A stretch of DNA of 62,338 nt, filler included. It is 4 parts of 4 records of this genome, joined end to end, with 100 filler letters (N's around TTAATTAATTAA, not from the genome) between each part and the next. Parts side by side here need not be neighbours in the genome. Positions count along the whole stretch, not along the records: positions 1 to 31,908 come from SRR31156797_8078; 3 more parts are not named here. One strand, given 5' to 3'. Position numbers and translations under genes: made by a program. This document shows positions 3,001 to 52,654 of the stretch, in pieces; positions within the stretch are counted from its first letter, which is position 1, and each line of letters begins with the position of its first letter. The notes under the pieces are model-generated. The model did not search any database and was not told the origin of the DNA. It saw nothing but the letters and a program-made list of their open reading frames with translations.

Positions 3001-6000
3001 TCCCAATGCTCTAACTACTATATCAAATACACCTGATTTTTGTAAAAGAACCTCTTCGGATACATGAAATACAATTTTATCCGAATAAATATCGTAAGCT
3101 GTAGTTGGAAGTGTATTACCTTCATAAGTAATCAATTCAATACTCGATGACCATGAATCATCAAAAGAAAAGTAGGTAAGCTCAAAATCGTTATCTACTG
3201 TTGCATCAAATTGTGTAGACAAATTTGGTGGATTTTGCAAGGATGGAATATCAAAAGGATCTGAATCAACGGAAGCAATCCCATCTCCTGTAAAAGTAAG
3301 ATATGCTCCTGTTATTGCAAGACTACTTGATGCTGTTAGACTTCGGTAATTAATTACTCCATTGCTCACCGCTTGTAAAGTATCGCCCTCAAGCAGCCAG
3401 TCTCCTGCACCACCTTTAATCACTAACACTTCATATTCATCTTCGGTATTACATGCATTATTATATTGATCTTTTACAGAAATCTTAGGTTGCAAGTCCA
3501 ATTCCCCACCATTTACCAGTGGTGCAGTTGGTTGCGTTTCTATTACTAAAGTATCGGGCTTACCATGCTTAATCTCCTGATTTACTGTTGAATTTTGATA
3601 TCCGCGAGAAAAAACAATAAGCTCCTTAGTATCGGCAACCTGCATAATAGCATCTTGAGAAGGATCAAAGACAATTTTACCTGCCTGACTCTTATCGTAA
3701 GCTATTGAAGGAAGCAATACTCCACCGTATGAAAGAGAATCAATTTTGCCTTGCCATTCGGGATTTTCCGAAAAAGTAACATCAAATAAAGAGTCAACTG
3801 TTGCACTTGTTGAAGCTATAAGAGAGGGTGCAAAAAGAGGAGCTGGAATCAAGAACGAAGCAGATTCCACATTTGTTAGTCCTGTGCCGGAAAATGTAAT
3901 TGTTGCATCACTTATCAAATCTGTACTTCCGGCAGTAAGATCTGTGTATGCTGCAACACCGTTTGTTACCATTAAAGAAGCTGTACCTTCGAGGTCCCAG
4001 CTGCCTCCGCTTGCATTTGCATTTATAGTTATAGAATTCTCACTTGTACAATCATTAAAGTACTGATCCTGTAATTTTACCACAGGTTGCGTTGCCAAGT
4101 CCTCACCGTTAGAGTTTGGTCCCATAGGCTGAGTTGTTATCACAATATTCTTTGCTACACCATGTGCAATTGCCTGTTCAACAGAATCGAGTAAATATGA
4201 TGTTGAAGTAATATATATATAGTCGGTATTGACCAATTGTAGTAGTGCCGTTTCACTTGGCTTAAATGTAATTTTACCTGCAGCTGTAGCGTCATAAGAA
4301 TTGGTTGGCAACGTAGTTTCACCATATTTTATTTCAGTAATTTTTGATCTCCAATCTGCATTTTCGGTAAAAGTGATTTCAAAATCTGCATCAACTGTTG
4401 TATTCGATGCAGCTGTTAAAATTGGTCCGGCATTTAAATCCGGAATATCAAAAGTTGTAGAATTAGCACTTGTTAATCCTGAAGCTGAAAAACTTATAAA
4501 GGCACCGCTTACAGGACCATCACTCGCTGCGGTCAAATCGGTATAACTAACAGATCCACTTGCTACAGTTTTTAGTAAGGTTCCTTCAAGAGTCCAATTA
4601 CTAGCATCTCCTTTTGCTGCAGTTATCTCAATGGTATTTTCCTCTAAACAATCATTTCCATATTGATCTCGAAGGGTAAGTCCTGGCTGAGTTGCCAATT
4701 CACTTCCATTCTCAATCGGAGCGGCTGGTTGGAGTACAATCACCATTTCGTTTGCAACACCATGCTTTATCTTTTGAGAAACACTAGCTGTTTCATAACC
4801 AGTTGCATGCACCTCCATATCTTTGGTATCTGCAACTTGTAAATCAGTATCCTGTGAAGGATCAAATATGATCTTTTCGCCTTGAGTTTTATCGTATGCT
4901 CCTGCGGATATTAAATTACCATCATATGTAATTGAATCGATTGCCAATTGCCAGGTAGGATTAGCTGCAAAAGAAATTTCAAATTCTCCATCGACAGTGG
5001 CACTTGAAGATGCCAACAGTTGAGGTGAAGCATCCAAAGCCGGAACTGTAAATGTACTACTTACAACATCTGTTAAAGAAAATGATGAAAAAGTAATGGT
5101 GGCTGTGGTTACTTCCGCATCACTACTTGCGGTTAAATCAGTAAAATTGAAAACACCAGATGCTGAAGTCAATCCGGAAGTTCCACCTAAAGTCCATGTC
5201 CCACCAGAAGCTACTGATGAGATAGTTGCAGAATTATCACTTGTACATACATTTGCATATTGGTCGTGTAGCTGAACAACAGGTTGAGTAGTCAAAACTG
5301 CCCCATTTGAACTTGGTCCAACGGGCTGAGTGCTTATAAATAAATCAGCAACAAGTCCATGTCCAATTTCTTGTGTAATCTCAGCATTCGAATAACCACT
5401 TGAAATAATAGATAGTGTTTGAGAACCAGCAACCTGAAGTAATGCTGATTCAGCTGGCTTAAATGTAATACGACCAATAGTTGTTGTAACATATGCCGCT
5501 ACAGGCAATGAATTTCCTCCGTATTGAATGTCCGTAATATTTCCACGCCAGCTGGCGTCGTCACTAAATGTAATAGAAAATTCATTATCCACTGTTGCAT
5601 TTATAGCAGAAGATATATCTGGTACACCATCAACTGGTATGTCAAATGGATTCGAATCAAGCGTAGCAAAACTTCCAGAAGAGAAGGTTAGATAAGCACC
5701 TACAACAGCTTCTGTACTGGTGGCTGATAAATCAGTGTAAGTAAATACTCCTCCTGCCAAAGTTTGATTAGGTGATCCACCTAACGTCCAATCACCAGCA
5801 TCTCCTTTAGCAACTGATATTGTAGTCGCATTATCACCTGTACAAGCATTTCCATATTGATCCAAGCTACCTATTTCAGGTTGAGTTGCAAATAATCCTC
5901 CATTACTACTAGGAGCAGTTGGCTGTGTAGTAATATTTATTGATGCCGGAGCTCCATGTCCTATTTCCTGAGATAAAATTTTATCATTAAATCCTGCAGA

Positions 6001-9000
6001 TACAAAAACGAAACCTGCTGTCCCAGATGTTTGCAATTCTGTTGATAGCGAAGGATCAAAAGTGATTTGATTTCCAACACTGATATCATAGGCAGCTGCA
6101 TCTACTGTATTCCCATTGTAGGTAATACTACTAATTTTACTTTGCCATGATTGAGTATCTGTAAAAGTAATAATGAATGAATTATCAACTGTGACTCCCG
6201 TTGCCGCAGTAAGATCAGGTGGTGAATTTAATCCCAAATTAAAGTTTGTTGAATTAACACCTGTCAAACCCGAGGAAGAAAATGCGATAAATGCATTATT
6301 CACAACTTGCGTACTTGAAGCTGTTAAATCGGTATAGGATAATACTCCTGAAGTAATAGTGCCGGTTAATGTTCCCTGTAGATCCCAGTTTACAGGATCA
6401 TTCTCTGCTGCTGTAATTGAAATTGAACTATTACTGGTACAAATATTACTATAAATGTCTCTTGCACTAACAACTGGCTGTGTTTGAAACGGATCTCCAT
6501 TGCTAGCTGGAGCTACTGGCTCTGTATCAATTGTTAATTGTGTAGCCACACCATGTCCTATGGTCTGAGATACTGTTGCATTATTATAACCATCAACAAA
6601 AACGATCATATCCGCTGTTTTAGCCGTTTGTAGTACGGCATCAGCAGAAGGGTCGAAAGTAATTTTATTGCTGGTAGAGTTGATGGTATATGCACTGGAT
6701 GGCACCGTATTTCCATCAAAAGAAATACTATCAATATTCGATTCCCAATCCACATTATCATCGTAAGATATTTCAAAAATTCCATCTACGCTTGCTCCTG
6801 ATGATGCTGTAAGATCTGGTGCTGAATTTAGACCTAGGTTAAAATCTGAAGAAGTCACTCCCGTTAATCCTGTTGATGAGAAACTTATATTTGCTCCCGT
6901 TATATTCTCATTACTGCTAGCTGTAAGACTGGCAAAAGTTAAAGTTCCTGAACTTGCATTTTGATTTAAGCTTCCTCCCAAAGTCCAATTTCCCACATCC
7001 CCTTTGGCTGCCGTTATTGTTCTGGAGCCATCGGTAGTACACAAATTATTGTATTGATCTAAAATTTCAAGAACTGGTTGTGGGCTAAATTCACCTCCAT
7101 TAACCGAAGGCGCTCCTGGTTGAGTATTAATTGACAATTTATTAACTGCTCCATGAGCTAAGACCTGTGATAGAGTAGCATCACTAAATCCGTCTGAAGA
7201 AATTACTAAATTAGCAGTTCCTGCTGTCTGCAATGCGATTGATAAAGATGGAGTAAATACTATTGTTCCTGTAGTTCCTGTATTATATGCAGCAACATCA
7301 ACAGTGACTCCATTATAAGTTATAACACTTATTTTAGATTGCCATCCATCAACGTCTGTAAAAGTAATTGTAAAATCAGAATCAACATCTGCATTAACAT
7401 CCTCTGCCAAATCTGATGGAGGTCCATTTAAACCTAAATTAAATGTTGATGAATTCACTCCGGTTAAACCTGTACTACTAAATGAAAGGAAAGCACTTGA
7501 GATTGCCTCATTACTACTAGCAGTTAGGTTGGTATAGGAAAGAATTCCGGTATTAACATTTGCCGTAACATCACCTCCTAAAGTCCAATTTCCAGTATCA
7601 CCTTTTGCAACTGTTACCGAGGTGGAATTATCCGTTGTACAATCATTATTATACAAATCCTGTAATTTGACTACAGGCTGATCTTGCAATTGACCTCCAT
7701 TCACATTTGGTCCGGTTGGTTCAGTTACCATTACTATATTTTTAGCCGAACCATGACCAATTGTTTGTGATACAGGAGAACTGTTATTAAAACCATCCGA
7801 AGAAATAATCAAATCTGCGGTTCCAGCTACCTGTAAGGCGGTAGATAAAGATGGAGTAAAGGTTATCTCTCCACTTATTGCTGTATTGTAGGCGGCATTA
7901 TCAACAACATTCCCATCATAGGTAATGCTATTAATATTTGATTGCCAATTGTTTTCATCCGTAAAGGTAATTGTGAATGGATTATCTACTGTAACGCTAC
8001 CTGCTGCAGTTATATCTGTAGGCGCATTATTTAAGCCCAAACTAAAATCAGAAGATGTAACCGGAGTAATTCCTGGAGAAGTAAATTCAATATTTGCACC
8101 AGTAACTTCCAAGGCACTACTTGCTGTTAAACCCGAAAAAGTCAATACACCTAAGTTCGCATTTTGATCAGGTGTACCTCCAAGACTCCAATCACCAGCA
8201 TCAGCTTTTGCTGCGGTAATTGTTCTATTTCCATCCGTCGAACAAAAATTATTATACTGATCTCTAACCTCAATAACAGGCTGAGGATTCAATTCTCCAC
8301 CATTTATAGCTGGAGTGCCTGGCTCTGTTGTTATTGCCAGTTGATTTGCTACTCCATGTCCAATAACTTGCGATAATGGTGCTGTATCGTCAAATCCATC
8401 AGAAGAGATAATAAAGTTAGCAGTACCAGAAGTTTGCAAAGCTGTGGATTGAGAAGGGTCAAAAGTAATTCTATCACCAACACTAATATCGTAAGCAGCT
8501 GCGTCTACATTATTCCCATCGTAGGTTATACTACTAATTTTACTTTGCCATGATTGTGTATCCGAAAAAGTAATAAAAAATGTTCCGTCAACAGTTGCTC
8601 CAGATGCTGCTGTTAAGTCTGGAGGAGAATTTAAACTCAAATTAAATGTCGCTGAATTTTCACTAGTAACACCAGATGCTGAGAAGGTAATAAAAGCACC
8701 AGTCACCACCTGAGTACTTGAAGCTGTTAAATCAGTATATGATAAAACACCAGAAGAAATTGTTCCAGATAGGCTTCCATTCAAATCCCAATTTCCAGGG
8801 TCATTTTCTACTGCTGTGATAGATATTGAACTATTACCAGTACACACATTGCTATATTGATCCTGTACATTCACAACAGGTTGAGTTTGAAATAAACCAC
8901 CATTATTAGATGGGGCAACAGGTTCCGTGTCCATAACAATCTTTGATGGAGCACCATGTCCGATGGTTTGTGATACAACTGCAGTTTCATATGAATTAAC

Positions 9001-27215: not shown

Positions 27216-28097
27216 TTATTTTAAGCCTGTTAGTACTTCTTCTGCATTTTTATTATTAGGATTTAACTCTAAAGATTTTTCATAAGCCTTAATTGCCAAC
27301 TCTTTGTCTCCCAGATCCAGCAAACATTCACCATAGCTATCAAACGTATTGTAAGCATTTGGATGCAATTCTGTATTCAATTTAAAAAGCTTTAATGCAT
27401 CTTCTTTTTCACCCTGGTTTTTTAGCTGATAAGCAAAATTATTAATCCAGTTTTCACGTAAATCATACTCAGAATTGGTCACATCACCTTGCTTGACAAT
27501 TCGTATGATTTCATCAATGCTTTTCCCTTCATCTACTAATTCTGTTAGTTTTTTTCGATTCAAGTTTTTCAGTTTCTCTCTTTGCTCCGCTAAAGTTTCA
27601 ACACCATATTCAATTCTCTCTGCATCCGTAATTTTTGTGGAATCCAACTCTTCTCTCACAACAACATTATTATCTAGGCGAGTATATTGCGTTCCATAAA
27701 TCTGAGCTTTATTTATGCTCAACAAATACCTGTCGGTTATAGCAGCCAAAAGCCATTTGTTTCTTGTTGAATCCAATTCTATAGATTTTGTCATTAGCTT
27801 TACCGCCAATGCATAGGTAACGGAGTCTTCACCATGATGAAAAATCAGTGCAGCGTTCTGATAGTCTATGGAGGTACGAACTTTATTGGAATCTAGTAAC
27901 TCGTAAACTCTAGCTTCTCTCAGGCTATCATTTTTTTGTCTGATACTCCGGTCTCGATGCTGCGTTCTATCCTCCTGGTCACTTTTAAAAATCTCAATCA
28001 ATTCCTGATTGTCCACAACTTCCTTCTGAACTTTGTCATTCTTGAAATTGCAGGAAATAATTCCGAACATACTTGCCAGTAAAATAATTCTTCTCAT
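27216..28097 (-). CDS. Lipoprotein with DUF6624-like domain and C-terminal TPR
   Basis: Lipobox IISC; DQEDR, AALIFHH, DRYL...QIYGTQ; TPR HPNAYNTFDSYGE...KSLELNP. Confidence 0.75.
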   Translation of the reverse strand: MRRIILLASMFGIISCNFKNDKVQKEVVDNQELIEIFKSDQEDRTQHRDRSIRQKNDSLREARVYELLDSNKVRTSIDYQNAALIFHHGEDSVTYALAVKLMTKSIELDSTRNKWLLAAITDRYLLSINKAQIYGTQYTRLDNNVVVREELDSTKITDAERIEYGVETLAEQREKLKNLNRKKLTELVDEGKSIDEIIRIVKQGDVTNSEYDLRENWINNFAYQLKNQGEKEDALKLFKLNTELHPNAYNTFDSYGECLLDLGDKELAIKAYEKSLELNPNNKNAEEVLTGLK

Positions 28098-28150
28098 ATT
28101 CCTATTTTATTAAATGTAAATTTCTTATAAGTGCCAATTTGTATTGTAAT

Positions 28151-28180
28151 GCATGATCTACAAGTTCTCGTTAGCAGGAG
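28151..28180. repeat. REP-like hairpin element, copy C (degenerate)
   Basis: GCATGATCTACAAGTTCTCGTTAGCAGGAG matches the copy B core at 24 of 30 nt. Confidence 0.65.
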
Positions 28181-28217
28181 TTATAACTGAAGCTTCTCTT
28201 TTATTCTCTTTAGGTTT

Positions 28218-29465
28218 CTAATAAGATATTGTTTTAGCATCAAATAAGTGAATTTCTTTATTTGGGAATTTAGATTTAGCTGCTTCAAATACCTCATCCA
28301 TTTTTCCAAATGCAGAAATGTATATAGTCTCAATTGGAGAACTATTTATCTGCTCAAAAATGTGATCGTCATTATCTGCTAATGAACTTCCGATAATTAC
28401 CAAGTTACCAGAAAGGCTAGCTAATTTATCAAAACAATGTTTCAGATAATCATTATTATTTATAGCATCAGTTTTATTCGAACGCTGAAACACACAAACC
28501 ACTTCTTGTTCGTCGTTATTTAAGACATCTTCTAACTTTTCATATAATGCTTTATCTGATTGTTGGGTTATTTTCTTGAACACTTCACCATCTTTGTATA
28601 TATGAAACGCTCCATGCAAAAAAAATAAATTCTGTGTTTCACTGGTTACATCATAAACTAGTTCGGGAATATCAAATAAAGTTTGTTGCTTACTTCCATC
28701 ATCAACCTTACTCAGAAATTCATTGCTCTTTTCTTCTTGGAAAATCTGCTTTACAACTTTATCAATATCTTTTGCTTTCCATCCTTTTTTATATGTTTTT
28801 GAATAAGATTTAATTTCGGTAGTAAAATGTGCTTTAGTTAACATTCTACAATCTTTCTCTAGAGAATTCATAGCCTTACCAAGGGTTAACTTAATCTTAC
28901 CATTGACTCTAGCATTTTTAATTTCAGAAAATATATTATTTTGATTTGTATTAAAATCCTCTTCAATAAATTTTAGTGATGGCAAGAATGCAATAGCATT
29001 CTTATCTTTATCTTCAACTGGTTTATACTTTAATAAAAGGAGATATAAAAAGGAATCATAATTTAATGTAAAGTAGTTTGTAAATTCCTTAAGCAATACA
29101 AATATCCCATCATTTTTATTTGCATATATGTTTTTAATTTCATCTTTTACAATTTCATGTGTTGCCTGCATAAAATCGAGTTTAATTTTATTGGCTATAT
29201 ATTTCTGTAAGAAGATATTATCTTGATTAATATCATCCTCTAGTTTACCGATAAAATACTCTAAATCGAAATCACAATCCTTCACCATTTGCAATGCATC
29301 ATTGTAAATTTTCTTGTTATTATCAGCCATCTTTTCGAAGATAGCTCCATAGCCTGTATTTACTCCAAGTCCATAATTAAAACCATTTGCTATGAGTAAA
29401 TGATTTTCTTTAAGTTGAATCTCATTAAGAACTTCTTTGTAGGTAAGGAATTTATATTTTTCCAT
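28218..29465 (-). CDS. DUF4917 / SIR2-like domain protein, candidate defence NADase
   Basis: HLLIANGF, FTLNYD, FFLHGAFH and LVIIGSSLADNDDHI are SIR2-like fold motifs; AT-rich. Confidence 0.75.
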   Translation of the reverse strand: MEKYKFLTYKEVLNEIQLKENHLLIANGFNYGLGVNTGYGAIFEKMADNNKKIYNDALQMVKDCDFDLEYFIGKLEDDINQDNIFLQKYIANKIKLDFMQATHEIVKDEIKNIYANKNDGIFVLLKEFTNYFTLNYDSFLYLLLLKYKPVEDKDKNAIAFLPSLKFIEEDFNTNQNNIFSEIKNARVNGKIKLTLGKAMNSLEKDCRMLTKAHFTTEIKSYSKTYKKGWKAKDIDKVVKQIFQEEKSNEFLSKVDDGSKQQTLFDIPELVYDVTSETQNLFFLHGAFHIYKDGEVFKKITQQSDKALYEKLEDVLNNDEQEVVCVFQRSNKTDAINNNDYLKHCFDKLASLSGNLVIIGSSLADNDDHIFEQINSSPIETIYISAFGKMDEVFEAAKSKFPNKEIHLFDAKTISY

Positions 29466-29571
29466 AGTTATTTTTCATTCATTATAGATGTCCAGAATGT
29501 TCAAACAATACTTCTTACTCAGAGGTATCAAGTTGCCTTAGTGGTAACTGTCACTTGTATATGGGACGTAA

Positions 29572-29817
29572 TTATTCATTCAACATGTCAATTATTAAAC
29601 TTTTCTGTTTTTTATTTACGATTGAAAAATCATCCAACCCAAAATCAACAAAGTCAATGATTAAAAAATAATCTTCATCTATATCAATACAATAAGCTGA
29701 ATAATCCACTGACCTTTCGCCTGTTGCAACTAATGAATTGGCATTATCCGCAAAAAAATCTTCTTCATTAATTGCTTTGTCTACAATTGTTGCAGCTTTT
29801 TGAAGTACTTGGTTCAT
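29572..29817 (-). CDS. Small acidic hypothetical protein (81 aa)
   Basis: ATG preceded by an AT-rich leader, co-oriented with the array, and a GTT core site 39 nt upstream. Confidence 0.55.
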   Translation of the reverse strand: MNQVLQKAATIVDKAINEEDFFADNANSLVATGERSVDYSAYCIDIDEDYFLIIDFVDFGLDDFSIVNKKQKSLIIDMLNE

Positions 29818-29912
29818 ATCATTTATTTTTAATGGTTACTTTAATCATGGTACAACCTCATTCATGGTGTAATGAACAAATTAATTTCCCAATTCCGTTA
29901 ATTCTTATAGTT

Positions 29913-29944
29913 CCCCCTCTACCGCACGAGTCCTCTCGTGTGGT
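29913..29944. repeat. REP-like hairpin element, copy D (related, opposite orientation)
   Basis: CCCCCTCTA-CCGCACGAG-TCCT-CTCGTGTGG: same CACGAG/CTCGYG stem and C/G-run tail as copy B, inverted. Confidence 0.55.
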
Positions 29945-30041
29945 TTGGTTTTAGAAATGGAACGCGATAGAATTGTATGTACAGGGAGTTAGTTTACAGT
30001 TCCACAGGAGATAGAAAGCCGGCTTATAAAATTTAGCTTTT

Positions 30042-31168
30042 GTTACCACACATTTTTCTTAAGGTCTTATATAAACTTCTACATTTAAGTCTTCAGTTGA
30101 TAATGTATTTAAATCGTTTTCTAATCCTCTTGGATTTTGAATTCTGTTTTCTGGGTCATAGACAAAACAAATTAATCGTTTACAATCAGGATGGACTTTG
30201 TAATGTTGAGAATCCAAAATTAATTGATCACCAACGTCTTTGTCCGCAAGCCCTTTCCTTGTTTTCTTTATTTCAATAACAATTTTTTCACTTTTTAGCA
30301 AAAAATCCACCCTGGTTGAACTACCAGCATAAGAAGGTGTATATTCTTCAGGTCTAACATCATCAAAGTCAATTCGCAATAGAGCATGAAACAAGTCTTG
30401 AACATCATATTCATCTTGAATCGTTATTGTATCTCTTTTATTATATCTATTTTGTAATTGACAAGCAATCTTATGAAATGAATCAATAATATTGATAATA
30501 AATTCAGATTTGTTTCCCGATGTTTCTTTGATTGAATATTTAATCTCCAGTTGTCGTAAAATACGATTTGCAATTTTCTCAAAATTTTGAATTGAAGCTA
30601 AGATTGAAAATGAGGACATTAATTCACCACCAATTTTTAAATGAGGTGGTGTATCCAATCCTTTATTTATAATGGAGGGGTCATCAGTTACAAAGGTCTT
30701 AGGTCTTCTCATTTTTACATAATCCCATGGAGTAATACCCCATTCATGTGATTCAATTTTACCTAAAAGTTCAACTTCGACATCTAATTTTTCATTTCCT
30801 TTTATGACTGACAATTCCGTCACAAGTTTATCTTGAAATTCTCTGTAGTTTTTAGAAATAGAGCTAACTTGTTTCCTAATTGATTCAATTTGTACATCTG
30901 CTTCACCTTCGATATACTTTTGAATGTTTTCTTCATCAATCCTAACAGCATCACCTTTTCTTGAAAAGTCACTGTAAACATCAAATTCTGTAGATGCCCA
31001 TTGTCCTATCCAGTTTTTATCAAACTTAGAAGATATCTCACTTAACTTTTGAAGTTGCTCCTGTAAAGCAGTAATTTCTTCTTTAGAATCTCTAATTAAA
31101 TTATTTAATTCCAATTTAATCGTTGCTATTATCTTTTCAATTTTCATTGCATTAAAATGTGTGGTAAC
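30042..31168 (-). mobile_element. Integron-like gene cassette bounded by complementary GTT.../...AAC core sites
   Basis: Perfect 15-bp inverted repeat GTTACCACACATTTT (30042-30056) / AAAATGTGTGGTAAC (31154-31168) tightly enclosing a single ORF. Confidence 0.65.
30059..31147 (-). CDS. PD-(D/E)XK nuclease with C-terminal DpnII/MboI-like REase domain and N-terminal coiled coil
   Basis: DEYDVQDLFHALL...DDVRPEEYTPSYAGSSTRVDFLLK...VIEIKK...DQLILD...Y...FVYDP. Confidence 0.8.
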   Translation of the reverse strand: MKIEKIIATIKLELNNLIRDSKEEITALQEQLQKLSEISSKFDKNWIGQWASTEFDVYSDFSRKGDAVRIDEENIQKYIEGEADVQIESIRKQVSSISKNYREFQDKLVTELSVIKGNEKLDVEVELLGKIESHEWGITPWDYVKMRRPKTFVTDDPSIINKGLDTPPHLKIGGELMSSFSILASIQNFEKIANRILRQLEIKYSIKETSGNKSEFIINIIDSFHKIACQLQNRYNKRDTITIQDEYDVQDLFHALLRIDFDDVRPEEYTPSYAGSSTRVDFLLKSEKIVIEIKKTRKGLADKDVGDQLILDSQHYKVHPDCKRLICFVYDPENRIQNPRGLENDLNTLSTEDLNVEVYIRP

Positions 31169-31387
31169 TTGTGAATAAACACAATTGTATTTATTTCTAT
31201 TATATCAATAAAAAGATGTTGTTACTCGTCCTTATTGGTTGGATAACATCCATTTGTTATTTTAAATCACCATTAAATTTAAAACTATTCCCACAAATCA
31301 CTTTACATATTTTAGCTTAATTTCCTTAGAATCAGTATAAATATGCTTAACAGGTGGTTTTTTACTGCTAAATTGTAATTGTACATA

Positions 31388-31417
31388 TAAAGAAGAGCCC
31401 CGTTTACTGGGGCTCTC
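31388..31417 (-). terminator. Intrinsic terminator
   Basis: GAGCCCC-GTTTACT-GGGGCTC stem preceded by an A-rich tract on +, just downstream of TAA at 31440. Confidence 0.6.
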
Positions 31418-31826: not shown

Positions 31827-31908
31827 TGTAACTACTCTTATCGCTTTATGTAATCACTACTATCGCCTTATGTAACTGCTCTTATCACTCTATGTAACTA
31901 CCCTTATC
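31827..31908. repeat. 22-bp tandem repeat (3 full + 1 partial copy) at the contig end
   Basis: TGTAACTACTCTTATCGCTTTA / TGTAATCACTACTATCGCCTTA / TGTAACTGCTCTTATCACTCTA / TGTAACTACCCTTATC. Confidence 0.85.
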
Positions 31909-32008
31909 NNNNNNNNNNNNNNNNNNNNNNNNNNNNNNNNNNNNNNNNNNNNTTAATTAATTAANNNNNNNNNNNNNNNNNNNNNNNNNNNNNNNNNNNN
32001 NNNNNNNN
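31909..32008. other. Artificial contig-joining spacer
   Basis: N44-TTAATTAATTAA-N44, which gives stops in all six frames. Confidence 0.98.
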
Positions 32009-37711: not shown

Positions 37712-37811
37712 NNNNNNNNNNNNNNNNNNNNNNNNNNNNNNNNNNNNNNNNNNNNTTAATTAATTAANNNNNNNNNNNNNNNNNNNNNNNNNNNNNNNNN
37801 NNNNNNNNNNN
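37712..37811. other. Artificial contig-joining spacer
   Basis: N44-TTAATTAATTAA-N44. Confidence 0.98.
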
Positions 37812-52554: not shown

Positions 52555-52654
52555 NNNNNNNNNNNNNNNNNNNNNNNNNNNNNNNNNNNNNNNNNNNNTT
52601 AATTAATTAANNNNNNNNNNNNNNNNNNNNNNNNNNNNNNNNNNNNNNNNNNNN
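52555..52654. other. Artificial contig-joining spacer
   Basis: N44-TTAATTAATTAA-N44. Confidence 0.98.

Follow-up and report, generated by a model that had tools for sequence, protein, structure and literature searches.

The Vibrio cholerae superintegron is a sedentary chromosomal integron whose V. cholerae repeat (VCR) sites are ~125 nucleotides (nt) long, and attC sites are used as a folded bottom strand. Clusters of attC sites lacking integrases (CALINs) are thought to be degraded integrons and are defined by the presence of at least two attC sites (PMC9024848). A review counts the Bacteroidota among the phyla with detected integrons (PMC8618304), and for Bacteroidetes IntegronFinder 2.0 lists only In0 elements and one complete integron, that of Salinibacter ruber (PMC9024848). 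In our full-text literature search, no account of a Xer-type cassette system was found for Flavobacteriales or Bacteroidota. Here we examine a locus in a window of 62,338 nt (the whole stretch of DNA that was analysed), in which a gene for a protein with a restriction endonuclease (REase) domain is bracketed by a 15-nt inverted repeat. This REase gene is, in our judgement, quite probably one stranded cassette of an integron-like system, located beside an attI-like site in a strain-specific island of low GC content. An earlier note on the same DNA had described the region as an integrase-less, decaying array of cassettes with non-canonical cores. What it observed is confirmed, and its interpretation of these observations is partly supported.

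The integron-like system in question occurs in Flavobacteriales and other Bacteroidota. Like sedentary chromosomal integrons, its arrays hold co-oriented, promoterless cassettes that open at GTT and close with a complementary AAC half-site plus an imperfect hairpin, the sequences of which resemble one another within a lineage. The bottom strand of this hairpin is again the one that folds better, and each array has as its starting point a docking site that adjoins a tyrosine recombinase. A preprint describes sedentary integrons as stores of defence systems, and the enrichment of cassettes in defence and toxin-antitoxin genes is a further likeness (10.1101/2024.07.02.601686). As we read this system, each cassette carries a promoterless gene or gene pair, starts with GTT plus ~6-12 cassette-specific bases, and ends with the complement of these bases plus AAC, followed by an imperfect hairpin of 45-200 nt. 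An array opens immediately past the gene for a Xer-like tyrosine recombinase, at a docking site composed of a palindrome plus GTT, with the cassettes co-oriented with this gene.

The window was compared with related genomes and contigs, among them the metagenome contigs L035 and L036 and the contig L001 of a Flavobacteriales metagenome-assembled genome (MAG). The features on which our reading of the REase gene depends are the following, with positions counted along the window.

31154 to 31168, minus strand: cassette 5' end, a half-site derived from R', with the sequence GTTACCACACATTTT; located by exact copy search, and similarity to L035, L001 and L036 begins at 31168.
30059 to 31147, minus strand: cassette gene, 362 amino acids (aa), with an N-terminal helical and a C-terminal DpnII/MboI-type restriction endonuclease domain; assigned from PF18742 and PADLOC.
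30042 to 30056, minus strand: cassette 3' half-site (R''), with the sequence AAAATGTGTGGTAAC; the exact complement of the 5' end, and it precedes the hairpin site in L035 and L001.
30026 to 30041, minus strand: what apparently remains of the first arm (L'') of a hairpin site now lost; from nhmmer and BLAST matches.
31169 to 31205, minus strand: attI-like site, laid out as are the docking sites past the recombinase stop in related genomes.
28135 to 31300, no strand assigned: low-GC island, delimited by GC composition and divergence from related strains.

On the minus strand, GTTACCACACATTTT occupies 31168-31154 and lies 21 nt before the ATG of the REase gene (31147). Its complement AAAATGTGTGGTAAC, which ends in AAC, occupies 30056-30042 and lies 2 nt past the stop codon. 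These two are the sole exact copies of the 15-mer in the window. A scan of all complementary GTT.../...AAC pairs in the island left the 15-nt pair unmatched, as the runners-up were 9 and 8 nt long and lay within genes. Likewise, the longest such pair in 300 shuffles of the island was 12 nt. The motif positions given in the earlier note were all found as claimed, on the minus strand. Its proposal that the REase gene is an integron-type cassette, with a GTT half-site at the start and the complementary AAC half-site at the end, is supported.

The same cassette is present in other contexts. Full-length relatives of the REase protein are encoded on L035 (84% at the amino acid level), L001 (70%) and L036 (70%). 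On all three contigs a GTTACCACACATTT start is followed by the REase gene and then by an open reading frame (ORF) of 113 aa. In L035 and L001 there follow AAACGTGTGGTAAC and a conserved hairpin of ~135 nt; L036 ends before that point. The nucleotide similarity of the window to L035 (85%) and to L001 and L036 (73%) opens exactly at 31168, which is the G of GTT, and the similarity between L001 and L035 extends from 2 nt before GTT through 1 nt after AAC. L001 and L036 have the cassette in common, and their upstream genes or cassettes are unlike. The earlier note had asked whether homologues elsewhere would have identical boundaries but different neighbours; they do, and identity falls at GTT and AAC. 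The window cassette therefore has what is expected of an integron cassette, namely a 5' end complementary to its own 3' half-site among neighbours that vary. In L001, an IS5-like transposase fragment (DDE_Tnp_1_2; positions 2533-2847) lies on the opposite strand, cuts the hairpin past the cassette and ends the contig.

The ~135-nt hairpin element recurs in every intergenic space of L036 and flanks the cassette in L035 and L001. It opens with AAC, from which 3 nt lead to a 19-nt arm; an AT-rich loop of ~70 nt separates this arm from its complement, and a further 5-6 nt lead to GTT. A consensus derived from six copies forms a 27-pair stem with compensatory changes in 6 pairs, and Rfam yielded no match to the island, L001, L035 or L036. 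A covariance model of the element, R1, detected 11 copies over 7 small contigs of the Flavobacteriales MAG, and sites in 27 of 121 related genomes with a maximum of 22 per genome. For 13 of the 15 cassettes that lie between consecutive sites, the GTT start pairs perfectly with the cassette's own AAC end over 9-10 nt. Mismatched control pairings, for which AAC was chosen by the same rule as for true pairs, reached that complementarity in 2 of 210 cases, both from one cassette seen twice. This pairing is the footprint of circles opened at GTT.

Other characteristics of these sites agree with this assignment. Of 60 distinct sites, 57 have their more stable fold on the strand complementary to the genes (p 2.5e-10), which is consistent with the use of attC as a folded bottom strand. 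GTT is found near the 3' end in 58 of 61 sites and AAC near the 5' end in 57 of 61. The related arrays thus possess, by covariation and strand bias, the imperfect hairpin bounded by AAC and GTT that is characteristic of attC. The core GTTRRRY is obeyed by just 4 of 58 sites, so non-canonical cores are a trait of this family. The earlier note's reading of a Bacteroidota-type system with cores that deviate from GTTRRRY is supported. Short variants of the site stand directly behind the recombinase in L072 (G013:C5) and L071 (G045:C42), as a 45-nt perfect hairpin and as 64-nt forms without the AT-rich loop; these variants indicate that the long loop is dispensable.

These data also bear on two other explanations for the inverted repeat. 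It could represent the ends of a non-autonomous transposon, similar to a miniature inverted-repeat transposable element (MITE) or a mobile insertion cassette, that carries the REase gene as a passenger. A perfect terminal repeat around a single gene, the break in similarity to relatives at its outer edge, and the IS5-like fragment adjoining the cassette in L001 are all features that such an element might exhibit. However, the repeat is flanked by CACAA and AAAAG, with no target duplication, and the insertion sequence in L001 lies on the other strand and cuts into the hairpin. Moreover, each array cassette has its own repeat with a GTT start and an AAC end, whereas the members of a transposon family would share their ends, and a conserved hairpin, itself part of the unit, comes after the 3' arm. 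We consider a transposon highly improbable.

Alternatively, the two arms of the repeat could serve as crossover sites for inversion of the segment between them, by which the nuclease gene would be turned on or off relative to an outside promoter. In the gene-inversion switches of Bacteroidota, inverted repeats flank a whole gene and promoter-like, AT-rich DNA lies outside, and the layout in the window matches this arrangement. Against inversion, the orientation of the REase gene relative to the array is the same in four of four contexts, no invertase gene is present near the island in the window, and the contigs of the source run contain no strand-changing joint, although this last point is weak because contigs drop rare variants. 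The GTT/AAC logic that runs through whole arrays accounts for the repeat without any inversion, and we give a switch very little credence.

A candidate recombinase is encoded in related genomes. The MAG G001 carries, at a contig edge, a gene for a 445-aa tyrosine recombinase that passes the NF040815 model (237 bits; cut-off 220) and falls below TIGR02249 (211 bits; cut-off 265). Its alignment to VchIntIA (2a3v) is split in two, and a stretch of 70 residues in IntI corresponds to 27 here, which indicates that the IntI-specific insertion is missing. The protein also has ~170 extra N-terminal residues, with a sub-threshold match to HARP. An integrase with the insertion typical of classical integrons was thus found neither in the window nor in this related recombinase. 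Relatives of the G001 enzyme are present in 76 of the 121 genomes, many at a contig edge with the 3' end towards the edge.

The recombinase and an R1 site share one contig in 7 genomes, and in 4 of these (G020, G045, G013 and G094) the site lies 0.7-2.4 kb downstream of the recombinase and is co-oriented with it. At 15 of 20 junctions, a palindrome, 3-6 nt and GTT occur within ~60 nt past the recombinase stop, with the palindrome being weak in two (L116 and L122). The first cassettes of G045 and G013 have GTT/AAC pairings of 12 and 10 nt. In L087 (G094:C1, 5834-7532), the recombinase at the array head is apparently split into ORFs of 84 and 262 aa. The first cassette of L087 has kept its ends, GTTAGGCAC and GTGCCTAAC, and has no hairpin, making it a second hairpin-less cassette beside a docking site.

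The DNA directly before the cassette in the window resembles these docking sites. It consists of an ATATAA box (31205-31200), 4 nt, an imperfect 9-bp palindrome (arms at 31195-31187 and 31182-31174, with the loop AATT) and the spacer CACAA, after which the GTT of the cassette follows. The string that the earlier note had called attI-like was located at 31190-31166. The junctions L119 and L123 share the arrangement TTTATTCA-N3-GTT with the window, where it occurs once, at the attI-like site. The layout and this shared motif give the attI-like proposal moderate support, and the hairpin strength and profile search discussed below do not. The site before GTT may once have been a working attI. A second copy of 31166-31206 is present on another contig of the source run (37 of 41 positions identical). 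Its match to the window stops at GTT, and it may therefore be a live docking site. A recombinase remnant upstream of the attI-like site was considered and rejected: the 75 nt upstream were aligned with eight recombinase 3' ends, and the alignments were no better than those of shuffles (p 0.17-0.74). For this reason, the 'IQ-PI' reading of one upstream frame is not claimed.

At the other end of the cassette, AAC and ~16 nt of the first hairpin arm appear to survive. The best match of the nhmmer site profile in the island aligns 30047-30026 with model positions 6-27. Its E value of 1.4 is not significant alone, and its place, strand and register are as expected. In addition, BLAST matches window positions 30057-30034 to L001 2446-2469.

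Several observations weigh against this interpretation of the locus. First, the R1 and R2 covariance models, run with filters off, find no folded site in the window (best E values of 0.089 and 1, at unrelated places), and the sequence past the cassette shows no folding in excess of that of shuffles (z -0.31). By these measures the window holds no attC site, and the CALIN envisaged in the earlier note, for which two would be needed, is not borne out. Second, a tblastn search of the window with an array-linked recombinase as query did not find the enzyme (best E 3.6), in agreement with the note's statement that no integrase is present. Third, the hairpin energy of the attI-like site ranks at the 16th percentile among all GTT sites of the window, when of 16 real junctions 12 fall in the lowest 5%, and a profile built from 19 junctions of recombinase end and docking site misses the attI-like site of the window. 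Finally, among the 7 genomes in which recombinase and site share a contig, the nearest detected site is far from the recombinase in 2 and on its other side in 1, and what ties the Xer-like enzyme to cassette movement is its adjacency to arrays.

Despite these points, we regard the following course of events, taken as a whole, as likely. The cassette would once have been a circle carrying the nuclease gene. A Xer-like recombinase, acting on the folded bottom strand of the hairpin, would have put this circle in at G|TT of the docking site. The hairpin would later have been deleted save for AAC and ~16 nt, and the gene would have become fixed. The recombinase, which is absent here, may have been lost or may never have been present at this copy. 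Because the hairpin is lost, no recombinase gene is present and the 113-aa second gene is missing, the cassette can be viewed as an immobile relic.

The protein encoded by the cassette matches PF18742 over residues 219-362 (E 4e-56) and the PADLOC model Aga_Helical-REase (E 1.2e-31). With this nuclease domain and a helical N-terminal part, it is like the helical-REase effectors associated with prokaryotic Argonautes (pAgo) and the DpnII/MboI-type endonucleases. Unlike those systems, the island encodes no Argonaute, and no methyltransferase domain of the kind expected for type II restriction-modification was found in the island ORFs or the scanned neighbours; in arrays the gene is instead paired with the 113-aa ORF. 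Expression of the REase gene probably persists, with its product acting as a stand-alone defence of the nuclease type, and the AT-rich region around the docking site probably drives its transcription. The names of the matched families suggest that its product would defend against phage.

The 113-aa ORF, for which there is no Pfam family, lies inside the REase cassette in three contexts (L035 1228-1569, L001 2097-2438 and L036 4740-5000), and its product could be the nuclease's partner or its immunity protein. It is cleanly absent from the window cassette, where the sequence past the REase stop resumes with what follows the 113-aa stop in L035. REase-domain relatives of other Bacteroidota also reside in arrays: in L003 a site lies directly past the stop, and L004 has one as well. 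Relatives bracketed by inverted repeats in the position of cassette ends were observed in an Acidobacteria MAG (L020, ~5074-5733; 11 nt, GTTAGGCAGCG) and in a Spirosomataceae MAG (L006, ~5744-6560; 9 nt, GTTATGCAC). This nuclease may be a common cassette passenger in several phyla.

The window is composed of four contigs joined by N-TTAATTAATTAA-N linkers at 31909-32008, 37712-37811 and 52555-52654, so genes on either side of a linker need not be neighbours in the genome. The island is 740 nt away from the end of the first contig (31908). Its GC content is 25-33% (28000-31400) vs 35-47% in the flanks, and it contains three ORFs that are co-oriented on the minus strand, namely the REase gene, an 81-aa orphan and a DUF4917/PDC-S21-like gene. 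The flanks are matched at 90-99% by contigs from three other runs or studies, up to 28134/28144 and again from 31270/31301. Beyond these points the contigs of those runs continue into unlike sequence, which indicates that the island of ~3.1 kb is strain-specific. A 22-nt tandem repeat of at least 4 units occupies 31827-31908 and reaches the contig end. Other runs have one additional unit, so its copy number varies among strains.

No joint spanning the island or the cassette was found in the contigs of four runs. In X2, X10 and X12 the island is uncovered except for short pieces, which by the coverage rule is no evidence of absence. These pieces are 29177-29477 in X2, at depth 2, and a hairpin repeat near 29913-29973. 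An X12 contig of depth 1.7 that starts at 31150 is too minor to interpret. An empty-site comparison gave no counterpart, as the nearest relatives of the neighbouring TPR gene are merely 48-59% identical and lack synteny, and there is no tRNA or tmRNA gene within the window that might have been an integration target.

The remainder of the island contains the following features.

29913 to 29973, no strand assigned: short GC-rich hairpin repeat, terminator-like on the plus strand, with its stem at 29921-29944; located between the cassette and the 81-aa ORF.
29572 to 29856, minus strand: GTTGTACCA (29856-29848) together with the 81-aa ORF (29817-29572); no complementary AAC end.
29535 to 29548, minus strand: third copy of GTTACCAC, in the same orientation as the cassette start.
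28218 to 29465, minus strand: candidate defence gene, DUF4917/PDC-S21-like (PF16263, E 3.9e-17; PDC-S21, E 9.5e-42).

The hairpin at 29913-29973 has one copy in the window and further copies on other contigs of the source run, and in a marine sediment metagenome run its depth is ~20 times that of the flanks. It looks like a dispersed repeat of the repetitive extragenic palindromic (REP) type, situated where the hairpin site of the cassette should be.

The two other ORFs bear on an alternative that is closer to the earlier proposal, in which the whole three-gene island is a decayed array of three cassettes with worn half-sites, whose hairpins and integrase eroded in place. The three ORFs are co-oriented behind the attI-like site, their GC content is uniformly low, and related strains have other sequence at the locus. 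The third GTTACCAC precedes the DUF4917 gene in the orientation of the cassette start, and both downstream GTT motifs seem to be preceded, at a distance of 7-11 nt, by strings similar to CACCAT, an arrangement that also marks the second arm of the site consensus. The first cassette of L087, which is hairpin-less with its ends kept, likewise fits erosion in place.

Other results argue against this alternative. Although GTTGTACCA lies 39 nt before the 81-aa ORF, the island scan found no GTT/AAC pair beyond chance around either this ORF or the DUF4917 gene. GTTACCACTAAGGC, at 29548-29535, is 83 nt before the ATG of the DUF4917 gene, and GCTTCAGTTATAAC, at 28193-28180, is complementary to it at 10 of 14 positions; we estimate that ~0.1 such matches are expected in 107 positions, and judge this one to be at chance level. 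R1, R2 and nhmmer find no site. Neither Pfam nor PADLOC has a family for the 81-aa ORF, and 401 genomes yielded no convincing relative of it, the one weak match of 26 residues being taken as spurious. A DUF4917 relative was found in one of the 401 genomes (G311), where its operon includes a 1070-aa ORF and the surroundings hold no site. PF16263 was found in none of five array-rich genomes, which is weak evidence since control genomes gave nothing either.

Given ends at chance level and no relatives in arrays, the 81-aa ORF and the DUF4917 gene cannot be called cassettes, as the earlier note had done. An array in the window is likewise not supported, since there is no folded site and a single cassette is demonstrable. 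We therefore view a decayed three-cassette array as possible but rather unlikely. The third GTTACCAC (29548) may be the stub of a second cassette start. This motif occurs three times in the 62 kb, always in the island and within a span of 1.6 kb, when 0.87 copies are expected; 5 of 100 shuffles reach three. The boundary motif that had been reported at the S41 gene, GTTAGCAAC at 17063-17055, extends over the opening codons of the S41 reading frame in its longest form and is attributable to chance (0.38 copies expected in the window; 32 of 100 shuffles hold at least one).

With the REase gene read as a single stranded cassette, the differences from described systems become apparent. Unlike sedentary chromosomal integrons, the system has a recombinase that lacks the IntI-specific insertion and carries the extra N-terminal part of ~170 aa, and its gene runs in the direction of the cassettes instead of diverging from them. 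The cores deviate from GTTRRRY, the half-site pairing is longer (9-15 nt), and the host phylum is one that the IntegronFinder 2.0 report portrays as nearly integron-free (PMC9024848). Also in contrast to sedentary integrons, the window has one cassette and this cassette is without a hairpin. The locus is similar to a CALIN in being a cassette remnant with no integrase nearby. However, a CALIN retains sites, whereas the family models detect zero in the window, which places this locus one decay step further and would make it invisible to site-based tools.

The underlying system is probably an integron of a new variant, and the locus a decayed member of it. We lean towards a more specific formulation, in which a Bacteroidota integron variant has at its array heads a co-oriented, Xer-like recombinase with an additional N-terminal domain and no insertion, and in which the window records the death of such a platform. 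The recombinase and hairpins would have been purged, and the defence gene, its 15-nt pairing and the docking site would persist.

Integrons have been taken to be rare or absent in Bacteroidota, and have been defined by an integrase insertion that is absent in this system. If the Xer-like enzyme truly moves cassettes, then the definition of integrons and the tools derived from it miss a whole branch, and the structural rule by which folded sites can be read only with the insertion would have to be reconsidered. For an isolated defence gene, a short inverted repeat of the GTT.../...AAC type at its two ends can betray an origin as a mobile cassette after all detectable recombination sites are gone. 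If this interpretation is true, the decay of such platforms leaves 'orphan' defence genes that integron finders would not trace to cassettes.

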